Of a stretch of DNA of 64,000 nucleotides, positions 13,974 through 33,041 are shown in pieces. Under the pieces are notes generated by a model, which made no database searches, was not told the origin of the DNA, and saw only the letters and a list, made by a program, of their open reading frames with translations. Position numbers and translations under genes: made by a program. This DNA is from Dictyostelium discoideum (lineage: Eukaryota): assembly GCA_000004695.1 (NCBI GenBank), contig CM000150.2, forward strand, positions 2,112,001 through 2,176,000, read 5' to 3'. How positions within the stretch are numbered: the stretch's first letter is position 1; each line of letters opens with the position of its first letter.

Positions 13974-15342
<1,369 letters not shown>

Positions 15343-15557
15343 TCCAAAAAAAAAGAAAAAATCCAAAAAAAAAAGAAAAAATCCAAAAATAAAAGTGAAA
15401 ATCTAAAAAAATATCTTAGATTCTCTTTATCAAATTTACAATTGTTTTTTTTTTTTTTTTTTTTTTTTGAAATTTATTTTTAAAATTTTTATTTTTATTT
15501 TTTTTAATACACCCTTCTTGTTTCTCATAAATATAAGTGTTCATTACACCACCCCTT

Positions 15558-15594
<37 letters not shown>

Positions 15595-15908
15595 ATATAT
15601 TTTTTTATTTTCAATTTTAAACACTTTACAATTGTTTTTTTTTTTATTATTATTATTCATTTTTTTTTTTTTTTTTTTTTTTTATAACTCACAAACCAAT
15701 AATATTTTTTTTTTTTATATTTTTTTTTTTTTTTTTTTATAAAAATATAAAATATGAACATTTATTAAATTTTAATAGGTATACATATAATTAGTAAATA
15801 AATAATTTACAAATACCATCCACACAAACATACAGACACACACACAATACAAATACAATTACAAATATACACAATAAAAAAAAAAAAAAAAATAAAAATA
15901 ATAATAAA

Positions 15909-16143
15909 ATGAAAATTTTACAATCTTTTTTACTTGTGCTACCAATTTTATTTTCAATTTGTTTATTTGTTGCGTCATTAATTACAAATATCGATTTAAA
16001 AACCAAAATTCAAATTAAATCAGTATTTTTTAAATTTACAAAGATTATAAGTATTGGTTTTTATATTTTCCATATAATTTCATGTTTTTATTGGGTATTT
16101 AGTATTGGAGGTGTAAATATTGGAAATAGTTCTATTATTAATT

Positions 16144-16190
<47 letters not shown>

Positions 16191-16811
16191 TATAATTATA
16201 ATAATGAAATAATAAAATATAATGAAATTCAAAATAAATTAACAAGCAATGAATATAATGTTAATAATGAAAATGATGAATTTTTAAAAATGGCAACCAC
16301 ATCATCATCATCATCATCAAATTTACAATTAAAAATGGATTTATCAACATCAACATCATCAACAAAATTATTAATTAATGGTATTAATGATAATGCAAGT
16401 TATAGATACTATTTTAAATTATTAATTCAATCTGTTAAATTTTATCAATTCAATGATACAATTATAATTTTAATACCATTAATATTTGCAGCGATTTCAA
16501 TAATATTTGTATATTTAAAAAATTCATTGGTTAATAGAATTTTATTTATTAAAATCCAAGGATTTAGAAATGAAACACCTGCAGGTTATGATGTTTTAAT
16601 TAGAGTTTTATATATTTTCATGTTTGTTTTCATTTTAATAATTGGTCATTTTGGTAATTTGGTTTGTTTAAAAGTTAATGCTTTTGAAAAAATTGGAATT
16701 TGTAGTTATCATCATAATAATAATAATAGTTTTTGGTATTATCAAGGTTTTATAAATACACTTTATTTAGTATATGGTTATCCTTTATATGAATTGGTTA
16801 ATTTAATTTAA
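15909..16811 (+). CDS. Hypothetical multi-pass membrane protein, 300 aa, with a poly-Asn insert.
   Basis: The ORF has an ATG start. There are hydrophobic segments at the N-terminus (LLVLPILFSICLFVASL), in the middle (IILIPLIFAAISIIFVYL) and near the C-terminus (IFMFVFILIIGHFGNLVCL). No domain was recognised. Confidence 0.4.
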
Positions 16812-17177
16812 ATTTTAATTAATTATAATAAAAAAAAAAAAATGTATATATAAATAAATGTAAATAATCAATCTAATAATAAATAAATAAAAAATAATAG
16901 ATAATAAAAAAATAAAATAAATGTAAAATAAATGTAAAATAAATAAAAAAAAAAAAATTTAATTATTCTTTTTTTTTTTTTAAAATGCAATATATGGATT
17001 GTTTTTTTTTTTTTTTTTTAATTTATTGAGTAAAAAAATGAAAAAATTAATAATTAATTGAAAAACTTATCAAATTGTAAAAAAAAAAAGTTGGGATTAT
17101 GGTTTAAACCATAATCAGTTTTTAAAAAATAAAATTCTTGTTTTTTTAAGTTTTATTGTTTTTAAGTCAGTTATTTG

Positions 17178-17217
<40 letters not shown>

Positions 17218-17298
17218 AAAAAAATATGATCAAAACAATACCATTTTTGTTTTGGTGTAATATTTAAAACATTTGTGTTTCAGTGTAATATCTAAAAA

Positions 17299-17663
17299 AT
17301 GTCATTTTTATGCTCAGAAAATTCATATCAACAACAAAGTAAAATATCAATTGATATTGACAAATCTCTAAAAAATCATAAATTAAAATTAGAGGAAGAA
17401 ATAAGAGTATTAATTTATGGGCAAAAGAAAGTTGGTGTAACAACACTCTTTAAAACTTTTTTGTTAATGGGTGAAAGCCAAATAACACCTGAAGAATTAA
17501 TGGATAATAGAAATAATGTTTATAAAACTATAATTAACCAATTAAAAAAATTCATTATTATTTCAAATAATTCAAAAATTGAATTAGAAAATAATAATAA
17601 TATTGTAATTATTTATTTTATATTTTAAATTTTATTTTTCCCTACTTTCATAGTTACTAATAA

Positions 17664-17718
<55 letters not shown>

Positions 17719-18540
17719 ATGATAGCAAATGTCAAATTTAATATTGGAATTAGATAGTGAGAATTTTTTATGGAATAAAGAAATTGGAGAAACTTGTTTA
17801 AAACTATGGAATGATTCAGGTATTCAAAAAATATTTCAAAGTCAATTTAGTGAGTTTTTTGGTTATTTCTTTAAACATTTACAACGTATATCAGATGAAA
17901 ACTATACTCCAACACCTCAAGATTTAAATTTTATAAAACTTACTCAAAATGGTATAATTGAAGGTAAATTCACTTTTGAACGTTGTCTTATAAAAATGAT
18001 TGAAATGGGTATACAAACTTCAACTTTAAAGAAATGGATTAACTGTTTTAGTGAAGTCCAAGCCATAATATATGTCATTGATTTATCAGTGTAAGTAATT
18101 ATTTTTTTTTTTAAAAAAAAATAAACAATAATAATTAAAATAATAATAATAATTAAAATAGGTATGATATAGTTGAAAGTGAAGATTGTTCAAAATCAAT
18201 AAATAAATTAGAAAAATCTTTAAATGGGTTTAAAGAAATTATTGAATCAAAATATCTTCATGGTTGTGGAGTGATTGTATTTTTCAATAAAAAGGATATT
18301 TTTAGAGAAAAGTTAAAAACTGTACCATTTAAAACCTATGATAAAGATTACATTGGTGAAAATGATTTTGAATCCACAACAAATTTCATTAAAAATAAAT
18401 TACTTGATTATTATTCAAATCCAAATAAGAATGTCTATTTTTTGATTAATGAAGAATCTGAAGTTGATATTTGTAGGAGTACATTCAATATTTTAAAGGA
18501 TATTGTTCTCAACATAACATATAATTCTGTAAAAAATTAA
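17299..18540 (+). CDS. Divergent heterotrimeric G-protein alpha-subunit-like protein. Three exons: join(17299..17604, 17726..18090, 18162..18540), about 350 aa.
   Basis: It aligns along the whole G-alpha fold. N-terminus: MSFLCSE...SKxIDxxLKxxKLKLEEEIRVLIYG. The P-loop position reads YGQKKVGVTT instead of GAGESGKST. ..LWNDSGIQKIFQSQFSEF.. and ..ENYTPTPQDLNFIKLTQNGIIEGKFTFE.. correspond to switch I, with the catalytic Arg and Thr lost. EMGIQTSTLKKWINCFSEVQAIIYVIDLSVYDIVESED corresponds to DVGGQRSERKKWIHCF..AIIFVVALSDYD. FFNKKDIF keeps the NKxD box, and ICRST corresponds to TCATDT. Introns have GTAATT and GTAAGT donors, with phases 0/2. Confidence 0.7.
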
Positions 18541-18596
18541 AATAAAAAAATAAAACAAAATTTTAAAAAATAAATAATAGAATAATTTATTAAATT

Positions 18597-18633
<37 letters not shown>

Positions 18634-18760
18634 TGTTTTCTTTTTTTTTTTTTGTTTTTGTTTTTGTTTTTTTCTTTTTTTTTTTTTTTTTTTCTTTTTT
18701 CTTTTTTCTTTTTTTTTTTAATTTTTTTTTTTTTTTTTTTTTTTTCCAGGTTTTGAAAGT

Positions 18761-20559
<1,799 letters not shown>

Positions 20560-24743: not shown

Positions 24744-25155
24744 TAATATTTTTTTTTTCAAAAGAATTAATTTGTTTTTTTATTTTAATTAAACCCTAAA
24801 TTATTTATCTGAAAAAAAATTTTCGCTTTCCCAAACAGTTTTATTTTTTTATTTGAAAAAAAAAGAAACAATTTTTTGAAAGCTTCCAACTCAATAGCGT
24901 CAAATCTGATCGGAGTTTCAGTTGAAAAATGGGTTTTTTTTTTTTTACAATTTTTTTTAATTTTTTTTCAATTTTTTTTTTTTTTTTCATAAACAAAATC
25001 TTTTTTATTTTACTTTTTTTTTTTTTTTTTTATTTATTGTATACTAAATTTTAGTTTTATATATATTTTTTTTTTTTTGTATATTTAATTTTTTATTTAT
25101 TTATTTTGTAATATTTTTATTTTTTTGTAAATTAATAACCACACATAAAAACAAA

Positions 25156-27957
25156 ATGTCAGAAGAACCAACCCCAGTTTCAGGTAATGACAAACAACTC
25201 TTGAACAAAGCTTGGGAAATTACCCAAAAAAAAGTAAAATATTATTATTTTTTCTATTCAAAAAAAAAAAAAAAAAAATAAATAAATAAATATAATAAAA
25301 TTTTATTAATTTTTTTTATTATTATTATTATTTTTTAAAAATATTTAGACTTTCACAGCATGGTGTAATTCACATTTACGTAAACTTGGATCATCAATTG
25401 AACAAATTGATACAGATTTTACTGATGGTATTAAATTAGCTCAATTATTAGAAGTTATTTCAAATGATCCAGTATTTAAAGTAAACAAAACACCAAAATT
25501 AAGAATTCATAATATCCAAAATGTTGGTCTCTGTTTAAAACATATTGAATCACATGGTGTTAAATTGGTTGGTATTGGTGCTGAAGAGTTAGTTGATAAA
25601 AACTTAAAGATGACTTTGGGTATGATTTGGACAATCATTCTTCGTTTTGCCATTCAAGATATTTCAATTGAAGAATTGAGTGCCAAAGAAGCCCTTTTAC
25701 TTTGGTGTCAAAGAAAGACCGAAGGTTATGACCGTGTTAAAGTTGGTAATTTCCATACCTCATTCCAAGATGGTCTTGCCTTTTGTGCTCTCATCCATAA
25801 ACATAGACCAGATTTAATCAACTTTGACTCTTTAAACAAAGATGATAAAGCTGGTAACTTACAATTGGCTTTTGATATTGCCGAAAAAGAATTGGATATC
25901 CCAAAGATGTTGGATGTTTCCGATATGCTCGATGTCGTTCGTCCAGATGAAAGATCAGTCATGACCTACGTCGCTCAATACTACCATCACTTTTCTGCCT
26001 CTAGAAAAGCTGAAACCGCCGGTAAACAAGTTGGTAAAGTTTTAGATACCTTTATGTTGTTAGAACAAACCAAATCTGATTATCTTAAAAGAGCCAATGA
26101 ACTCGTTCAATGGATTAACGATAAACAAGCATCACTTGAATCACGTGATTTTGGTGATTCCATCGAATCTGTTCAAAGTTTCATGAACGCTCATAAAGAA
26201 TATAAAAAAACCGAAAAACCACCAAAGGGTCAAGAAGTCTCTGAATTGGAAGCTATCTACAATTCATTACAAACTAAATTACGTTTAATTAAACGTGAAC
26301 CATTTGTTGCACCAGCTGGTCTCACTCCAAATGAAATCGATTCCACTTGGTCCGCTTTAGAGAAAGCTGAACAAGAACATGCTGAAGCCCTCCGTATTGA
26401 ACTCAAACGTCAAAAGAAAATTGCAGTTCTCTTACAAAAATACAATCGTATTCTCAAGAAACTCGAAAACTGGGCCACCACCAAATCTGTCTACCTCGGT
26501 TCCAATGAAACCGGTGACAGTATCACTGCTGTTCAAGCTAAATTAAAGAATTTAGAAGCTTTTGATGGTGAATGTCAATCATTGGAAGGTCAATCAAACT
26601 CTGATCTCCTCAGCATTCTTGCTCAATTAACTGAACTCAACTACAATGGTGTACCAGAACTCACTGAACGTAAAGATACATTCTTTGCTCAACAATGGAC
26701 TGGTGTTAAATCATCTGCTGAAACCTACAAAAACACTCTTTTAGCTGAACTTGAAAGACTCCAAAAGATTGAAGACTCATTGGTCGAATTCGCCAAGAGA
26801 GCCGCTCAATTAAATGTTTGGATTGAAGCTGCCGATGATCATGTATTTGATCCAATCAATGTTGACTCTGTTCAAGGTGTCCAAGAAATTCAAGAGAAAT
26901 TCGACGCTTTCCTCCACGATCAATCACAACAATTCGCTGAATTGGAAGCCCTCGCTGCTTTAACTCAACAACTCCGTGAACTCGGTCGTTCTGAAAACGA
27001 TTATTCAGTCATTTCATACGATGAACTCTCTGCCAAATGGAATAATTTATTGGCTGGTATTGAAGAACGTAAAGTTCAACTCGCCAATGAACTCACCACT
27101 CAAACCAACAACGATGTTCTTTGCCAATCATTCTCTGTTAAAGCAAATGAAATTTCAGATTATGTCCGTGTTACTTTAGATGCCATCTCACAAAACACTT
27201 CATCAGATCCACAAGAACAATTAAACAATATCCGTGCTATCATCACCGCTCATGCTGAAAAGAAACCAGAACTCGATGAATTATACACCATTGCTTCTCA
27301 ACTCGAAGAAGCTCAAGTTGTCGATAACAAACATACTCAACACAGTTTAGAATCAATTAAATTAAAATGGGATAAACTCAATACACTCGCTAAAAAGAAT
27401 GAACAAGTTGTTGAAGGTGAAATTCTTGCTAAACAATTAACTGGTGTTACTGCTGAAGAATTAAGTGAATTTAAAGGTATGTATAATTTATTTATTATAA
27501 ATATTAATTAAATTATTTAAAACTCGTCCAATGATTAATAAATAACTTTTTTTAATTAATTAACATGAACGAAAAAGCCTGCTTCTCACATTTCGATAAG
27601 GACAACGATAACAAATTAAATCGTCTTGAATTCTCCTCTTGCTTGAAGAGTATCGGAGATGAATTAACTGAAGAACAATTAAATCAAGTCATCAGTAAAA
27701 TCGATACCGATGGTAATGGTACCATTTCATTCGAAGAATTTATTGATTACATGGTTTCATCACGTAAAGGTACAGACAGCGTTGAATCAACTAAAGCTGC
27801 ATTCAAAGTTATGGCTGAGGATAAAGATTTCATTACTGAAGCTCAAATTCGTGCTGCTATCTCTGATTCTAAACAAATTGATTATTTACTCGCCAGTATG
27901 CCAGCTGTTGAAGGTGGTTTTGACTACAATTCATTTGCTGAAAAATTATACCAATAA
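25156..27957 (+). CDS. abpA: Alpha-actinin (F-actin cross-linking protein). Three exons: join(25156..25233, 25349..27476, 27578..27957), 861 aa.
   Basis: Exon 1 (MSEEPTPVSGNDKQLLNKAWEITQKK) is followed by exon 2 starting TFTAWCNSHLRK, with two calponin-homology domains (..DGIKLAQLLEVIS.., ..LLLWCQRKTEGY..DGLAFCALIHKHRPDLI..) and four spectrin-like repeats. The ..EFKG donor is GTATGT. Exon 3 begins (A)CFSHFDKDNDNKLNRLEF and carries two EF-hands (DKDNDNKLNRLEF, DTDGNGTISFEEF). This matches Dictyostelium alpha-actinin as I recall it. Confidence 0.9.
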
Positions 27958-28100
27958 ACAAATAATTATTAATTATAAATACATTTTAAAATTATATTAA
28001 TTTAATTTAAAAAAATTAAACATATAACAATATTCTTTTCATTTTTAATAAGTTTTTTTTTTTTTTTAGTCACATAAAGTTAACTGAACATTTCAAACTT

Positions 28101-28230
28101 TGGGAGAATTCAAGACGATTTAATTTGTTATCCTTATCCTTATCGAAATGTGAGTAGCAGGCTTTTTCGTTCATGTTAATTAATTAATTAAAAAAAGTTA
28201 TTTATTAATCATTGGATGAGTTTTAAATAA
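28101..28230 (-). repeat. Inverted partial duplicate of the abpA intron-2/exon-3 junction (original 27519..27645), about 95% identical.
   Basis: The reverse complement of 28101..28230 reads ttatttaaaactcatccaatgattaataaataactttttttaattaattaattaacatgaacgaaaaagcctgctactcacatttcgataaggataaggataacaaattaaatcgtcttgaattctccc. This matches 27519..27645 with a few substitutions. Confidence 0.8.
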
Positions 28231-28879
28231 AATTAGGTTCTTTTTACAATTTAATTTTTTATAGTTTTCAAAAAAAAATGAATATAATCATAACTTATGT
28301 AAAACAAACACTATTATTTATGTGATTGAAAAAATAATTGTTTTAAATTTATTTATAAAAAACAAATCAACCTTTTTTTAAATTAATAATTCCAACGATA
28401 TATAATTTTAAATTAAGTTAACAATAAAACAATTCATTTTTTCGTTTTAATGTATATTTATTTAAAAGATTCAAAATGTATTACAAAAATTTATTATTTA
28501 AAATAATATCAATTTAAAATGTGTTTTTGTTGTTAGCAATGAATAAAGATTAATTCATTTATCAATGTAGTGATTTAAAAAATTTTAGACTTTTAAAATT
28601 GAAATTATGTATAAATGTCATATCCAATGTATGGCTGCATTAATTATAGATCACCAAATGGAGATGTTATTAAAAATCTTAAAGCATTCAAATTTAATAA
28701 AGATGAATAATTAAAGGTAGAAGCACTGGTTATAATGTATGATTCTTTGATTAAATCATTCAATAGAGGTGTTTTTTTTCTTTTTGGTGATATTACAAAT
28801 TTAAGTAGAGAATTGCCAGAACTTGAAGGTTTAGGGTGGTTGGATTATTTGTTTTTTTACAAAACATAAGTGAAAATGG

Positions 28880-29030
28880 ATTTTGATCGTTGCAACGATA
28901 TCCACATTCTATTGTTTTATATTGACATTTTTGACCATAATATGCTGGTGCACATTGACATTGACCATCTAAACAACAAAGACCATTACCAGAACAACCA
29001 GTATTAAAGCAATTACCAAATGAAGGTTTA
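28880..29030 (-). other. Orphan EGF-like coding fragment: ..PSFGNCFNTGCSGNGLCCLDGQCQCAPAYYGQKCQYKTIECGYRCNDQNP.. It may be a remnant of, or an unassembled exon from, a comC/EGF-like gene.
   Basis: The Cys spacing (CSGNGxC..C.C..Y.G..C) matches the EGF-like modules of the neighbouring gene 29889..33041 (CSGNGICDSSLNCICNKGYTSYDCS). I could not build a complete gene model: no convincing start or upstream acceptor was found. Confidence 0.25.
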
Positions 29031-29134
29031 TATCAATAAAATAATAAAATAAATAAATAAATAAAAAAAAAATTAAAAAGTTTTAGAAAATAATTAAAAT
29101 TTAAAAAACTAATTTTGATAAAAAGGAAAGTATG

Positions 29135-29200
29135 TATGTATGTATGTATGTATGTATGTATGTATGTATGTATGTATGTATGTATGTATGTATGTATGAT
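29135..29200. repeat. (ATGT)n microsatellite, about 16 units.
   Basis: A perfect tetranucleotide run is visible. Confidence 0.95.
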
Positions 29201-29202
29201 TT

Positions 29203-29572
29203 ATAAATAACTTTTTTTAATTAATTAATTAACATGAACAAAAAAGCCTGCTTCTCGCATTTCTACAAGGATAAAGACAACAAATTAAATCGTCTTGAGT
29301 TTAGTTCTAGCTTGAAGAGTATCGGAGATGAATTAACTGAAGAATAATTAAATCAAGTCATCAGTAAAATCGACACGGATGGTAATGGTACCATTTCATT
29401 AGAAGAATTTATTGATTACATGGTTTCATCACGTAAAGGTACAGACAGCGTTGAATCAAATAAATGCTGCTATCCCTGATTCTAAACAAATTGATTATTT
29501 ACTTGCCAGCATGCCAGCTGTTGAAGGTGGTTTTGATTACAATTCATTTGCTGAAAATTATTAATAAATTAA
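29203..29572 (+). pseudogene. Degraded direct copy of the abpA 3' EF-hand exon plus about 40 bp of the preceding intron (original 27540..27960).
   Basis: Colinear, about 90% identical: ..ttaattaattaacatgaacaaaaaagcctgcttctcgcatttctacaaggataaagacaacaaattaaatcgtcttgagtt.. It contains an in-frame stop (GAA TAA where abpA has GAA CAA), an internal deletion of about 57 bp (the ..TKAAFKVMAEDKDFITEAQIRAA.. region is missing) and a changed terminus. It has no upstream exons. Confidence 0.75.
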
Positions 29573-29888
29573 TAAAATAAATAAATAAAAAAAAAAAAAA
29601 TTAAAAAGTTTTTGAATAAATATTTAATAAAAATGAAAATAATTTTTTATTTTTAGTTTTTAAAGAAAAGGATTTTTTTTTTTATTTAATCAATAAAACT
29701 TTTAAAAAAACCTAATTTCTTTAGTAAATATTGAATAAAGAAATATTAATCCCTTTCTTTATTGTACCCATTTTTTTTTTTTTTTTTTTTTATATGTTGA
29801 TATTATTTTTATGTATGTATGTATGAATGTATGTGCCAATGTGCACTTAAAGTATTATTACAAGATTATTTAATTGTTGATATGTTTG

Positions 29889-31843
29889 TTATTGTGTTTT
29901 ACAACCTTCACCAACTTTAATAGTATTAAATTTCATTCCATTGTATCTATCATCCAATTCTTCTTCTTCCTCTTCATTTTTGGTTTGTATTGGATTATCT
30001 TTTATTTCTAAATTATTATTATTTCTTTCAATTTCAATATTATCCCTAGTTGAAGTTGTTGAAGTCGAAGGTACAGAGGTTGAATGGGATCTTGGTTTTG
30101 ATATGATTTCTATATTTGGCATTGAATTATTTGGATTATCAACTACAGTATTATAACGTGGTGGTGATTGTGGCATTGGTTGTACTGGTGATGAATCATT
30201 TCTTGTTGTTCTATAGTTATCAACAATATCATTATAATTATAATCTGGTGATAAGGTAATACTTGAAGTCATTGGATTTTCACCTAAATATATTCTTTCA
30301 TGTGATTTATTATTATTATTATCATCATCATCATTATTATTATTATTATTATTATGTTGATTTTGTTGTTGTTTTTGATTTTGTTGTTGTTGTAGTGGAT
30401 TTATTACCATTACATCTCTTGAAGATTTTCTTAATGCTAAATTTATATTTGCAATTGTTCTTTCAACTTTATTACGTTGGTGAATGAAAATTAATGAACC
30501 TAATAATATAACAATACCTAATACACCACAAGCACCAATGAAATAATATTTCCATTTTGAAGAATCTTGATCATTGGTTATTGAATTACGATTTATAGAA
30601 TCAGTATTTGAATGTAAAACAAAGGATGAACCAATTTCAAATGAATTTGAATTACTAATATTTTTAAATGGAATTTTAATTGAAATGAATGCTGTATTAT
30701 TATTAATTATTGGTTTTTGTTGATTCTCTAATAGAGTTGATGTTGCAACTAAATTTGTTAATTCAAATGAATTTGAAAATTTAAATTTATTTGCCAATGT
30801 AAATAATAGGTAATTTGATTCATCCTTTTCTCTAATTAAAATGTAACCATTATCAACTATTTCCGATTCAATTTCTTTTCTACTATCAATTGATTTAATT
30901 TGAAATAGAAATTCAATCATATCATTTCCATCACCTCCAACAGTTGTTGATATTAAAGATTTTATTAAATTATTAATTTCTAATGAAACAATTACAGAAT
31001 TATTTGATATTGGTAAATTTGTACCATAATAATCATAAAATGAATTTGTTGTCGTTGTTGTCGTTTGATTATAAATATAATTTGATTTAATTGAAAATTT
31101 TGAAAATATATTATCATCATTTGTACCACTAAATTCAAAACCATTTTCATTTTTAATTTGATTTTTATTTGTTAAAGATGAAATTGGTATTGTTAATGAT
31201 TGAAATCCTAATGAATTTAAAATTCTAATATGTGAAACTGAAATAATATAACCATTATTTTTATTTAATGTCAATTTAAATGAATTAAAATCATTTGTTT
31301 CTGGTTTTATTATTGTAGTACTTTCTAAATCAACAAATTTAATTGAACAATCATATGATGTATAACCTTTATTACAAATACAATTCAATGAAGAATCACA
31401 AATTCCATTACCACTACAATCATTATTACCATTTAATTGATAATTATTATTATTGAACCAACTTTTTGATGGACATTTTTTCCAAGATGGTAAAAATGGG
31501 AATAAATTATTTAATGAATCACTTGTTACATTACCAATTCTAATATAGGTTAGTGTTGATGATAAATATGAATTTCTAATATAATTAACATTTAAATCAC
31601 ATGTTAATTTTTTATCACTTAATAGTTTAACATTTGGACAATTTTGATTTAATAATATAACTTTAATATCATTACTATTTAAATCTATATTAAAATGGTT
31701 ACCTGATATTGTTACTTTTGAAACACCACTACTTGAATATAAATCAACTTGAGTAATTGTTTCAATAGTTGGTTTTGGAATTCTAAATAAAACTTTTTTA
31801 ATAATATTCTTTTCATCAATTATAATATCATTATCATTATTAA

Positions 31844-31885
<42 letters not shown>

Positions 31886-33041
31886 AAGTGGTTTTATCAG
31901 TTGTATTTACTGAAATTAAATAACCTTCTCTATCATTTGATAAATTGATTAAACTATTTAATGATTTTGGTATTGTTAATTTAAAAGTTATACTTCTACT
32001 ATTTGAATTATAAATTTGTTTTAAATTTTCATTTCCAAATTTAAAATATTTTAAATTTGATTTTGATTTTAAATAAAATGAAATTTCAAAATTTTCATCT
32101 ATAATTTCATTACCAAAACTATAAAAAATTTTAATTTCATTACCACCATCAAATTCAATAATTTCATTTTGTTGTTGATTATTTTCAATTATTGTTGGAA
32201 AGTAAATACCTTTTGAAATACATGAAAATGGTGATTCAATATTAAAAGTGAATGAACAAGTTGATTTATTTTCAATTGGTTGTGACGCATATAATTTATA
32301 AAAGATACTAGATGATGTTGCTTCAATACATTTAAATTTAAATATTGATACTCTATTTGAACATTGATCTATCGAATTATTAAATTGATAATCTTTATCT
32401 TCTAATGATATTGATGTTCTATACTTTAATGTTAATGGATCATTTATTTCATTTGTCATTTCAAATATACCATAATTATAATTTCCAATTTGAAAATTTG
32501 TAAACTCATCACTATTATCATTACTATTGATTTGACATGATTGAGAATTATTGAATGGGCATAAATCAATTATACCGCAAATATTAAATAAATACTAATA
32601 AATAAATAAATAAATAAAATTGATGAAATTAAGAAATAAAAAATAATATATAAAAAAAAATGAAAAAAAATTAATAAGTTTGTGGGAATGTAAAAAAATA
32701 AAAATAAAAATAAAAATAAAAAAATAAAAAAATAAAAAAAAAAATAAAAAAGTGATTAATACGGAATGAGTGTGTGTGGGGTGGGTGGGGGTGTGAAAAT
32801 TGTAATAATTAATAAAAAAGAAATAAATTTAAACATAAAAATATAAACAATTATTAAAAAAAAAAGTACAAACCTTTATTTTATCAGATGAAATTTGATA
32901 ACCACCATTCGCCACTGATATTTCTGAAAGATTGTAAATTGCATTATTAAATGGTGTTTTAAAGACACAATCAATTGGTATGTATGTTGATATTGATAAT
33001 TTAATATTTGATAGTAATAATAAAAATATAAAAATAATCAT
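29889..33041 (-). CDS. Type I transmembrane protein with a signal peptide, an EGF-like module and a polyQ/N-rich cytoplasmic tail. Two exons: join(29889..32594, 32874..33041), minus strand.
   Basis: Exon 1 encodes MIIFIFLLLLSNIKLSISTYIPIDCVFKTPFNNAIYNLSEISVANGGYQISSDKIK and ends at a GTTTGT donor. A ttattag acceptor joins it in frame to YLFNICGIIDLCPFNNSQSCQ...MTNEIND..., which continues into the track ORF 29889..32459. EGF-like module: CSGNGICDSSLNCICNKGYTSYDCS. TM segment: YFIGACGVLGIVILLGSLIFI. The cytoplasmic tail carries QQQQNQKQQQNQHNNNNNNN. Confidence 0.6.

Follow-up and report, generated by a model that had tools for sequence, protein, structure and literature searches.

Copies of the alpha-actinin (abpA) intron 2/exon 3 junction in a strain-variable spacer of Dictyostelium discoideum

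The abpA locus and the genomes compared

The alpha-actinin gene abpA is a textbook Dictyostelium gene, and the spacer that separates it from its downstream neighbour differs in every sequenced strain. Here, we describe two partial copies of the last intron/exon junction of abpA within this spacer, starting from a 64,000-nucleotide (nt) stretch of the D. discoideum genome (assembly GCA_000004695.1, contig CM000150.2, positions 2,112,001 to 2,176,000 of the forward strand), which is called the window throughout and whose numbering is used unless another locus is named. In the window, abpA comprises three exons (25156–25233, 25349–27476, and 27578–27957), and its spliced product of 861 amino acids (aa) is 100 % identical to D. 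discoideum AX4 alpha-actinin A (P0001). Exon 3 (plus strand), the functional parent of the copies, encodes the EF-hand region with matches to EF-hand_7 and EFhand_Ca_insen and ends in a TAA stop codon at 27955–27957, which is overlapped by an AATAAA motif. It is preceded by the 101-nt intron 2 (27477–27577, plus strand, GT..AG), whose splicing is seen in two Logan RNA-seq contigs (L002 and L003) that represent spliced abpA mRNA, join 27476 exactly to 27578, and stop at 27979 and 27954, respectively. The base composition around abpA is strongly AT-rich. The spacer, defined as the region from the abpA stop to the convergent neighbour gene, has as its ancestral right border the last large exon of that neighbour (29889–32459, minus strand), which encodes a TIG/EGF/transmembrane protein with an open reading frame (ORF) of 856 aa in the window and a length of 957 aa in the annotation of L001, the independent assembly introduced below.

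Exact-sequence look-up of the exon 3 ORF and of the 856-aa neighbour ORF returned no match, and a 130-aa exon 3 query found no homologues; the loci compared here were obtained with the full-length spliced protein. They include L001 (GCA_054883475.1), a 3.2-Mb contig of a Nanopore and Illumina de novo assembly from Holland et al. 2025 (PMC12745789), two wild D. discoideum isolates (L015 and L016), and two isolates designated ‘D. cf. discoideum’ that may represent a cryptic species (L012 and L013). D. citrinum (L004), D. firmibasis (L014), D. purpureum (L005), and Cavenderia fasciculata (L017) served as outgroups. Exon 2 places these genomes in the order ((((window, L001), (L015, L016)), (L013, L012)), (D. 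firmibasis, D. citrinum)), D. purpureum. The exon 2 sequences of L015 and L016 are 0.19 % diverged, and relative to the window the divergence is 1.6 % for L015, 2.8 % for L013, and 13.3 % for D. citrinum. Over positions 25000–33000, L001 and the window are 99.975 % identical, and their sole difference in these 8 kb is the length of a T-run at 25030 (2 nt) in the region upstream of abpA.

Inverted and direct copies of the intron 2/exon 3 junction

When window positions 27400–28100 were compared with the whole 64-kb window by blastn, two matches rose above the AT-rich background, one inverted and one direct. A preliminary description of this DNA, made from its letters alone, had reported both copies and suggested a self-comparison of the region; its coordinates proved correct within a few bases, and a tiled Smith–Waterman self-comparison of 27400–29900 (z scores against dinucleotide shuffles) recovered the same inverted and direct families together with one extra pair, X/X′, that is described in the last section.

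The parent arm of the inverted repeat (27513–27636, plus strand) combines the terminal 65 nt of intron 2 with the 59 nt that open exon 3. It reappears on the minus strand at 28103–28230 (E=1e-51), where 120 of 128 positions are identical, with a single 4-nt TTAA indel and 466 nt between the arms. Corresponding inverted arms are present in L013 (10987–11111), L015 (11366–11492), and L016 (11445–11574), and none was found at the loci of L012, D. citrinum, D. firmibasis, or D. purpureum; in L012, abpA is intact although the inverted arm has been lost. Both the left junction (..ACACCTAATT / TTATTTAAA) and the right junction (GAATTCTCC / CAAAGTTTGAAA) of the inverted copy are common to the window, L016, and L013 and are nearly so to L015. 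On the evidence of these shared junctions in the laboratory lineage, two wild isolates, and one ‘cf. discoideum’ genome, the inverted 124–128-nt copy is old and of one origin.

Despite this common origin, the two arms resemble each other far more within a strain than either resembles its counterpart elsewhere. Parent and inverted arm differ at 4 of 123 positions in the window, 4 of 127 in L015, and 3 of 127 in L016 (i. e., they are about 97 % alike), as compared to 11–26 differences per approximately 125 nt (9–14 %) between orthologous arms of different strains; in L013, the two arms differ at 15 of 125 positions. Accordingly, a neighbour-joining tree pairs the parent with the inverted arm by strain, with bootstrap values of 99.8 % for L015, 99.4 % for L016, and 92.8 % for L013. 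The comparison of the two wild isolates is particularly telling: their exon 3 and 3′ untranslated region (UTR) are nearly identical, yet approximately 17 nt at the intron 2 acceptor are wholly different (AAACATCAACGAAAATAG / CC in L015, AACCAAATGTGACCCAG / CA in L016), and the same difference is mirrored in the inverted arm. Since a repeat of one origin thus carries strain-specific variants in both of its arms, these patterns indicate that the arms have been homogenised by recurrent arm-to-arm gene conversion, in part very recently.

The direct copy (29196–29567, plus strand) comprises 49 nt of the 3′ end of intron 2 (29196–29244) followed by a decayed exon 3. The blastn match extends beyond it (27531–28078 to 29196–29697, plus strand, E=4e-116), and, when aligned globally, exon 3 and the direct copy agree at 346 of 371 positions (93.3 %). 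The copy is disabled by an in-frame stop (CAA to TAA at 29345–29347) and by a frameshifting deletion of 56 nt (corresponding to 27796–27851 of the original), with small indels near its end and substitutions that are distributed 6:2:14 over the three codon positions and clustered in the arm region. The earlier reading of this element as an exon-level pseudogene with a stop, a deletion, and substitutions therefore stands, and only the length of the deletion, given there as 57 nt, has to be adjusted. Both copies are DNA-level duplicates and not products of retroposition, because each contains intron 2 sequence (65 nt in the inverted and 49 nt in the direct copy), whereas a processed pseudogene would be recognised by missing parental introns. 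The sequence after the pseudo-exon is A-rich, but so is the A/T-rich spacer as a whole. The direct copy instead displays the features of an unprocessed pseudogene, namely a retained parental intron–exon junction, a nearby parent, disabling mutations, and independently decaying orthologues.

Such orthologues are found in both wild isolates. The pseudo-exon of L015 (14136–14351) is 5′-truncated, covers aa 49–120, and lacks the internal deletion, and that of L016 (16220–16594) carries a different deletion of 117 nt and a stop; no pseudo-exon was found in L012 and L013 or in D. citrinum, D. firmibasis, and D. purpureum. An AGT to AGC change common to all three pseudo-exons (window, L015, and L016) marks them as orthologous. 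The pseudo-exon, its flank, and the neighbour gene are moreover collinear with exon 3, spacer, and neighbour of D. citrinum. Judged by this collinearity and by its decay, the direct copy is a dead pseudo-exon that occupies the ancestral position of exon 3 relative to the neighbour gene. A derived two-base change, AAA to AGG, occurs in the L015 pseudo-exon and in the functional exons of both L015 and L016, which indicates that the functional exon and the pseudo-exon also exchange sequence.

The spacer itself has grown. It measures 288 nt in D. citrinum and 662 nt in D. firmibasis, as compared to 1932 nt in the window and L001, 2249 nt in L013, 3476 nt in L015, and 5524 nt in L016; in L012, a retrotransposon is present and the neighbour gene does not lie within 8 kb. 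It also holds a remnant of an orphan gene of approximately 500 aa that is intact in the wild isolates, as well as lineage-specific pieces that are described in the last section, and the proposed local hotspot of rearrangement is upheld.

As an observation on exon 3 in its own right, the part outside the arm (27637–27957) differs at 18 of 321 positions between the window and L015, against 35 of 2128 for exon 2 (approximately 3.5-fold, Fisher p=7e-5), and the excess is much smaller in comparison to D. citrinum (17.4 % against 13.3 % for exon 2). Such an excess fits with variation being fed in from the copies, the numbers involved being small.

Intron 2 and the explanations of the locus

Intron 2, whose 3′ half belongs to the inverted repeat, is itself confined to a single clade. 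It is present in all five D. discoideum-clade genomes and absent from D. citrinum, D. firmibasis, D. purpureum, and C. fasciculata, in which exons 2 and 3 are contiguous. Its shared features within the clade are a 5′ GTATGT or GTTTGT, a TACTAAC motif with a T-run, and the conserved 3′ 65 nt, with a TACTAAC...TTATTTAAATCTCATCCAATGATTAATAAATAAC core; the TACTAAC/T-run segment has been lost in the window only. The length of the intron ranges from 101 nt in the window to approximately 540–600 nt in the wild isolates (L015 10325–10862, L016 10328–10923), where (AAT)n and (AAATAAAC)n expansions account for several hundred additional nucleotides. Ma et al. (BMC Evol Biol 15:286, 2015, PMC4683709, Table S1) listed it as one of 40 putative intron gains in D. 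discoideum, located at gene positions 2322–2422 of DDB_G0268632, and did not find its source. The present comparison deals with the same putative gain, likewise without a source, and adds that D. citrinum and D. firmibasis also lack the intron, that its length varies widely within the clade, and that its 3′ half is part of a gene-converting repeat. Beyond that study, the main texts of the literature searched for an abpA pseudogene or DDB_G0268632 contained nothing relevant. A search for the source in the spacers and upstream regions of D. citrinum, D. firmibasis, and D. purpureum on both strands gave homopolymer-level matches only (z≤3.5), and intron 2-like copies in the window plus approximately 190 kb of related loci, the scope of our test for introner elements, are restricted to the three local ones. 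As a separate candidate, an origin of the intron start (GTATGTAT) from the (ATGT)n array beside the pseudo-exon was considered and rejected, given that this block exists only in the laboratory lineage; upstream of the pseudo-exon, L016 has (ATT)n, and the only ATGT array of L015 lies beside the neighbour gene.

In our view, the locus is probably a lineage-specific rearrangement hotspot with ongoing gene conversion and no sign of function. The spacer between abpA and its neighbour would have turned rearrangement-prone after the D. discoideum clade had split from D. citrinum and D. firmibasis, and the copies would have arisen as side effects of the repair of double-strand breaks or of template switching during replication. 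The arms would then be kept alike by gene conversion within the chromosome, acting between repeats that lie close together, rather than by selection for an RNA hairpin, and the unconstrained inverted arm may in this way pass mutations on to the splice acceptor of abpA and to its first EF-hand codons. Several points weigh against this explanation. Gene conversion is deduced here from sequence patterns, and the concerted evolution of the arms could also reflect selection for their pairing. The left boundary of the direct duplication has been eroded by microsatellites in every strain, and the intron gain, the inverted copy, and the insertion of the orphan gene share one long branch, which is compatible with more than one order of events. 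In addition, L001 is only probably the AX2 assembly of Holland et al. 2025.

A functional alternative is an RNA hairpin, in which a read-through abpA pre-mRNA would pair the acceptor region with the inverted arm, so that selection would keep the arms alike; conceivable roles are the control of intron 2 splicing or of 3′ end formation, or a Dicer substrate for abpA-directed small RNAs. The stem–loop anticipated in the preliminary description is indeed predicted by RNA folding, with a near-perfect stem of approximately 124 bp and a minimum free energy of −255 kcal/mol for the 784-nt RNA as compared to −129±7 for shuffled sequences (z=−17), but this is a trivial consequence of the inverted repeat. 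Also in favour of a hairpin are the approximately 97 % complementarity of the arms in three strains in spite of their divergence of 9–13 % between strains, the persistence of the repeat from a time before the cryptic species lineage branched off, and the conservation of the 3′ half of intron 2, which is unusual for an AT-rich intron. Selection for pairing is nonetheless less likely than gene conversion, since L012 has lost the arm while retaining an intact abpA, the arms of L013 are 12 % diverged, three of the four window arm mismatches are U–U, C–A, and C–C rather than wobble pairs, and the inverted arm lies beyond the end of the mRNA: it starts 146 nt past the stop codon, with its overlapping AATAAA, and 124 nt beyond the point at which the longer assembled mRNA contig stops. 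The arms furthermore match no Rfam family, and gene conversion alone accounts for the pattern. We thus consider a functional hairpin unlikely, and the associated suggestion of double-stranded RNA directed against abpA is not upheld, as the mRNA contigs end at or before 27979, one lineage is devoid of the inverted arm, and the arms of another have diverged by 12 %. A function of the direct copy, as an alternative 3′ exon or a small EF-hand gene, is very improbable. It has retained an acceptor-like AAAAAAG/CC, a 37-codon ORF (29234–29347) that still scores as an EF-hand pair, and substitutions biased to third codon positions, yet synonymous substitutions in the functional partner, along with occasional conversion, would be expected to produce such a bias. 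The in-frame TAA and the 56-nt frameshift, the different truncations and deletions of the L015 and L016 orthologues, the lack of a gene call at this position in the L001 annotation, and the 1.77-kb intron across the abpA poly(A) region that its use would need all speak against it.

A different proposal links the copies to the intron, in that one repair event, at a break between exons 2 and 3, would have given rise to both intron 2 and the inverted repeat, the 3′ half of the intron being templated by the downstream arm; the template would be an inverted exon 3 fragment, from which copying continued into the flanking intergenic DNA. In support of it, a single branch accounts for intron 2, the inverted arm, and the inserted orphan gene, and the repeat unit is made up of precisely the 65 conserved nucleotides at the 3′ end of the intron and the beginning of the exon. 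Moreover, the intron is on record as a putative gain without a known source, and the arms demonstrably exchange sequence. However, the branch is long (13 % exon 2 divergence as compared to 3 % within the clade), which makes co-occurrence weak evidence, no homologue of the intron or the arm flank was detected in the outgroup spacers (z≤3.5, homopolymer matches only), and L012 has the intron without the arm. A derivation of the intron 5′ end from the (ATGT)n next to the pseudo-exon had to be rejected because this adjacency is specific to the laboratory lineage, and an intron gain followed by a later duplication is a simpler order that fits equally well. A single repair event of this kind is, in our estimation, decidedly improbable. 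A link between the copies and the gain of intron 2 is possible, though unproven; it seems doubtful that the inverted arm was the template or a co-product of the repair event that created the intron and is still rewriting its acceptor by gene conversion. As for an assembly artefact, i. e., repeats that were mis-joined or collapsed in one assembly, AT-rich Dictyostelium DNA is admittedly hard to assemble (Holland et al. 2025, PMC12745789), but the independent Nanopore and Illumina assembly has an identical structure, the copies are orthologous in four further genomes (with diverged orthologues in L013, L015, and L016), and they differ from the parent by substitutions and indels, unlike collapsed repeats. 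Absence from independent assemblies, which the preliminary description had named as a ground for refutation, is contradicted by these results. The probability of an artefact is hence negligible: the finding is real, and the interpretation in the preliminary description is essentially correct.

The rearrangement hotspot with gene conversion, which we favour, is made up of features of known kinds: the pseudo-exon is of the unprocessed type, and the inverted copy is a segmental duplicate of small size that is subject to gene conversion. Arm-to-arm gene conversion is familiar from larger inverted segmental duplications and palindromes such as those of the human Y chromosome, the int22h repeats of F8, and the inverted repeats at IKBKG/NEMO. 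Like these, the abpA arms reside on one chromosome, have a within-genome identity that greatly exceeds that between lineages, carry lineage variants in both arms, and include one arm inside a functional gene and another that is non-coding. They differ in scale, with arms of approximately 125 nt and a 466-nt spacer in place of kilobases to megabases, and in that conversion extends over a splice acceptor and the initial codons of an EF-hand; besides, an inversion of the sequence between the arms was seen in none of the five genomes. The direct copy resembles other unprocessed pseudogenes in its preserved intron/exon boundary, its location 1.2 kb past the end of the parent exon, its disablement, and its independent decay. 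In contrast to them, only the terminal exon has been duplicated, the dead copy occupies the D. citrinum position of exon 3 beside the neighbour gene, and a trace of sequence exchange with the functional exon is still visible in it. Complex insertions, finally, are known to arise from template switching of the fork stalling and template switching (FoSTeS)/microhomology-mediated break-induced replication (MMBIR) type or from filler-DNA capture in break repair. The insert of the laboratory lineage is of similar composition (an EGF-like fragment, a flank copy from 500 nt away, and a microsatellite) and is accompanied by a deletion of most of the orphan gene; unlike in the systems named, its mechanism can be suggested from the mosaic only.

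What is new here is the comparative proof, the demonstration that a splice acceptor is undergoing active concerted evolution, and the finding that the copies lie next to an intron specific to this lineage. If the arm did template intron 2 or arise along with it, and still rewrites its acceptor, the locus would join the very few gains of spliceosomal introns with a reconstructable source and mechanism, and would also be a case in which a non-coding paralogue drives rapid splice-site evolution in a conserved cytoskeletal gene. The locus is tractable for measuring short-tract gene conversion, as the organism is haploid, knock-outs are easy, and several wild genomes exist, and it lends itself to studying how variation from pseudo-copies reaches a functional exon and its splice site and to revisiting the origin of intron 2. 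On the practical side, the copies can cause errors when primers are designed, knock-ins targeted, or reads mapped at the 3′ end of abpA.

Further contents of the spacer

No gene is annotated in the spacer of L001. The orphan gene is present as an intact plus-strand ORF of approximately 500 aa in the wild isolates L015 (12377–13867) and L016 (11822–13351), as other, frameshifted fragments in L012 and L013, and in the window as a remnant of aa 238–294 at 28624–28794 (plus strand; tblastn, 84 % amino-acid identity, E=1.5e-26); it was not found at this locus in D. citrinum, D. firmibasis, or D. purpureum. Laboratory strains are without this gene, which wild isolates have kept. Because the remnant maps to 28624–28794, it explains the GC-richer segment at 28600–28870. 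The relatives of the ORF comprise one orthologue and a few partial hypothetical paralogues in Dictyostelium (e. g., DDB_G0287139), and its weak match to GIY-YIG (E=0.011, motif FEIYYYGQTLQNLRKRLSGHQSH) is below the cut-off. With this sub-threshold match, few relatives, and no evidence of mobility, the ORF was rejected as a mobile element or endonuclease.

Next to the remnant, an EGF-like ORF fragment without a start codon lies on the minus strand (28796–29032), with its cysteine-rich core at about 28880–29018. It shows an EGF-type cysteine pattern and is 30 % identical to the EGF region of the 856-aa neighbour ORF; its matches to the Pfam families EGF_TEN, EGF_Teneurin, and EGF_Tenascin (E=6.5e-5 to 6e-3) all remain below the gathering thresholds, with 23.1, 18.8, and 17.1 bits as compared to cut-offs of 65, 24.3, and 25. 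The orphan minus-strand EGF-like fragment of the preliminary description is hence retained, while the GC-richer segment falls outside it and belongs to the remnant of the plus-strand gene. Both the fragment and the block formed by X and (ATGT)16 occur only in the lineage of the window and L001, and the fragment was not detected in L015, L016, L012, or L013.

The (ATGT)16 microsatellite abuts the pseudo-exon at exactly 29132–29195 (plus strand; repeat search and alignment), as had been described. The sole Rfam match there, mir-297 (29132–29199), reaches 39.9 bits against a gathering score of 90 and was rejected as a microRNA, being a low-complexity artefact. Upstream of the array, X (29019–29117, plus strand) is a duplicate of X′ (29559–29647, plus strand), i. 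e., of the extreme 3′ end of the pseudo-exon and its 3′ flank, as found by repeat search and local alignment (29031–29117 to 29559–29647, z=11); X starts with TTATATCAATAAA, which may be compared with the exon 3 end TTATACCAATAAA. X/X′ is single-copy in L015 and L016 and hence constitutes an 85-nt duplicate specific to the laboratory lineage, not a target-site duplication of the original event. An interpretation of X as a third 3′ UTR copy from abpA was dismissed, given that X scores z=2.0 against the real 3′ UTR and copies X′. As read from this arrangement, the laboratory-lineage spacer is a mosaic in which a captured EGF-like fragment is joined by a flank duplicate and its microsatellite.

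The remaining observations concern individual strains and samples. In L012, an ORF of the long terminal repeat retrotransposon type (RVT_1, RNase H, and integrase; 15274–18879, minus strand) lies downstream of abpA. L016 contains at 14645–15499 a second, partial and diverged (86–89 %) copy of the orphan-gene region, a strain-specific segmental duplication. An alpha-actinin of 853 aa, with 77 % identity to that of D. discoideum, is encoded by six environmental transcript-like contigs (L006–L011, from JGI samples including 3300028165) and presumably originates from an unsequenced dictyostelid in those samples. The collinearity of L015 and L016 breaks directly after the inverted arm. Just before this arm, in the abpA 3′ flank, the two otherwise nearly identical isolates are separated by five A→G/T→C transitions within 17 nt (AGTCACATAAAGTTAAC in L015, 11335–11352; AGCCGCATAGGGTTGAC in L016, 11408–11425).

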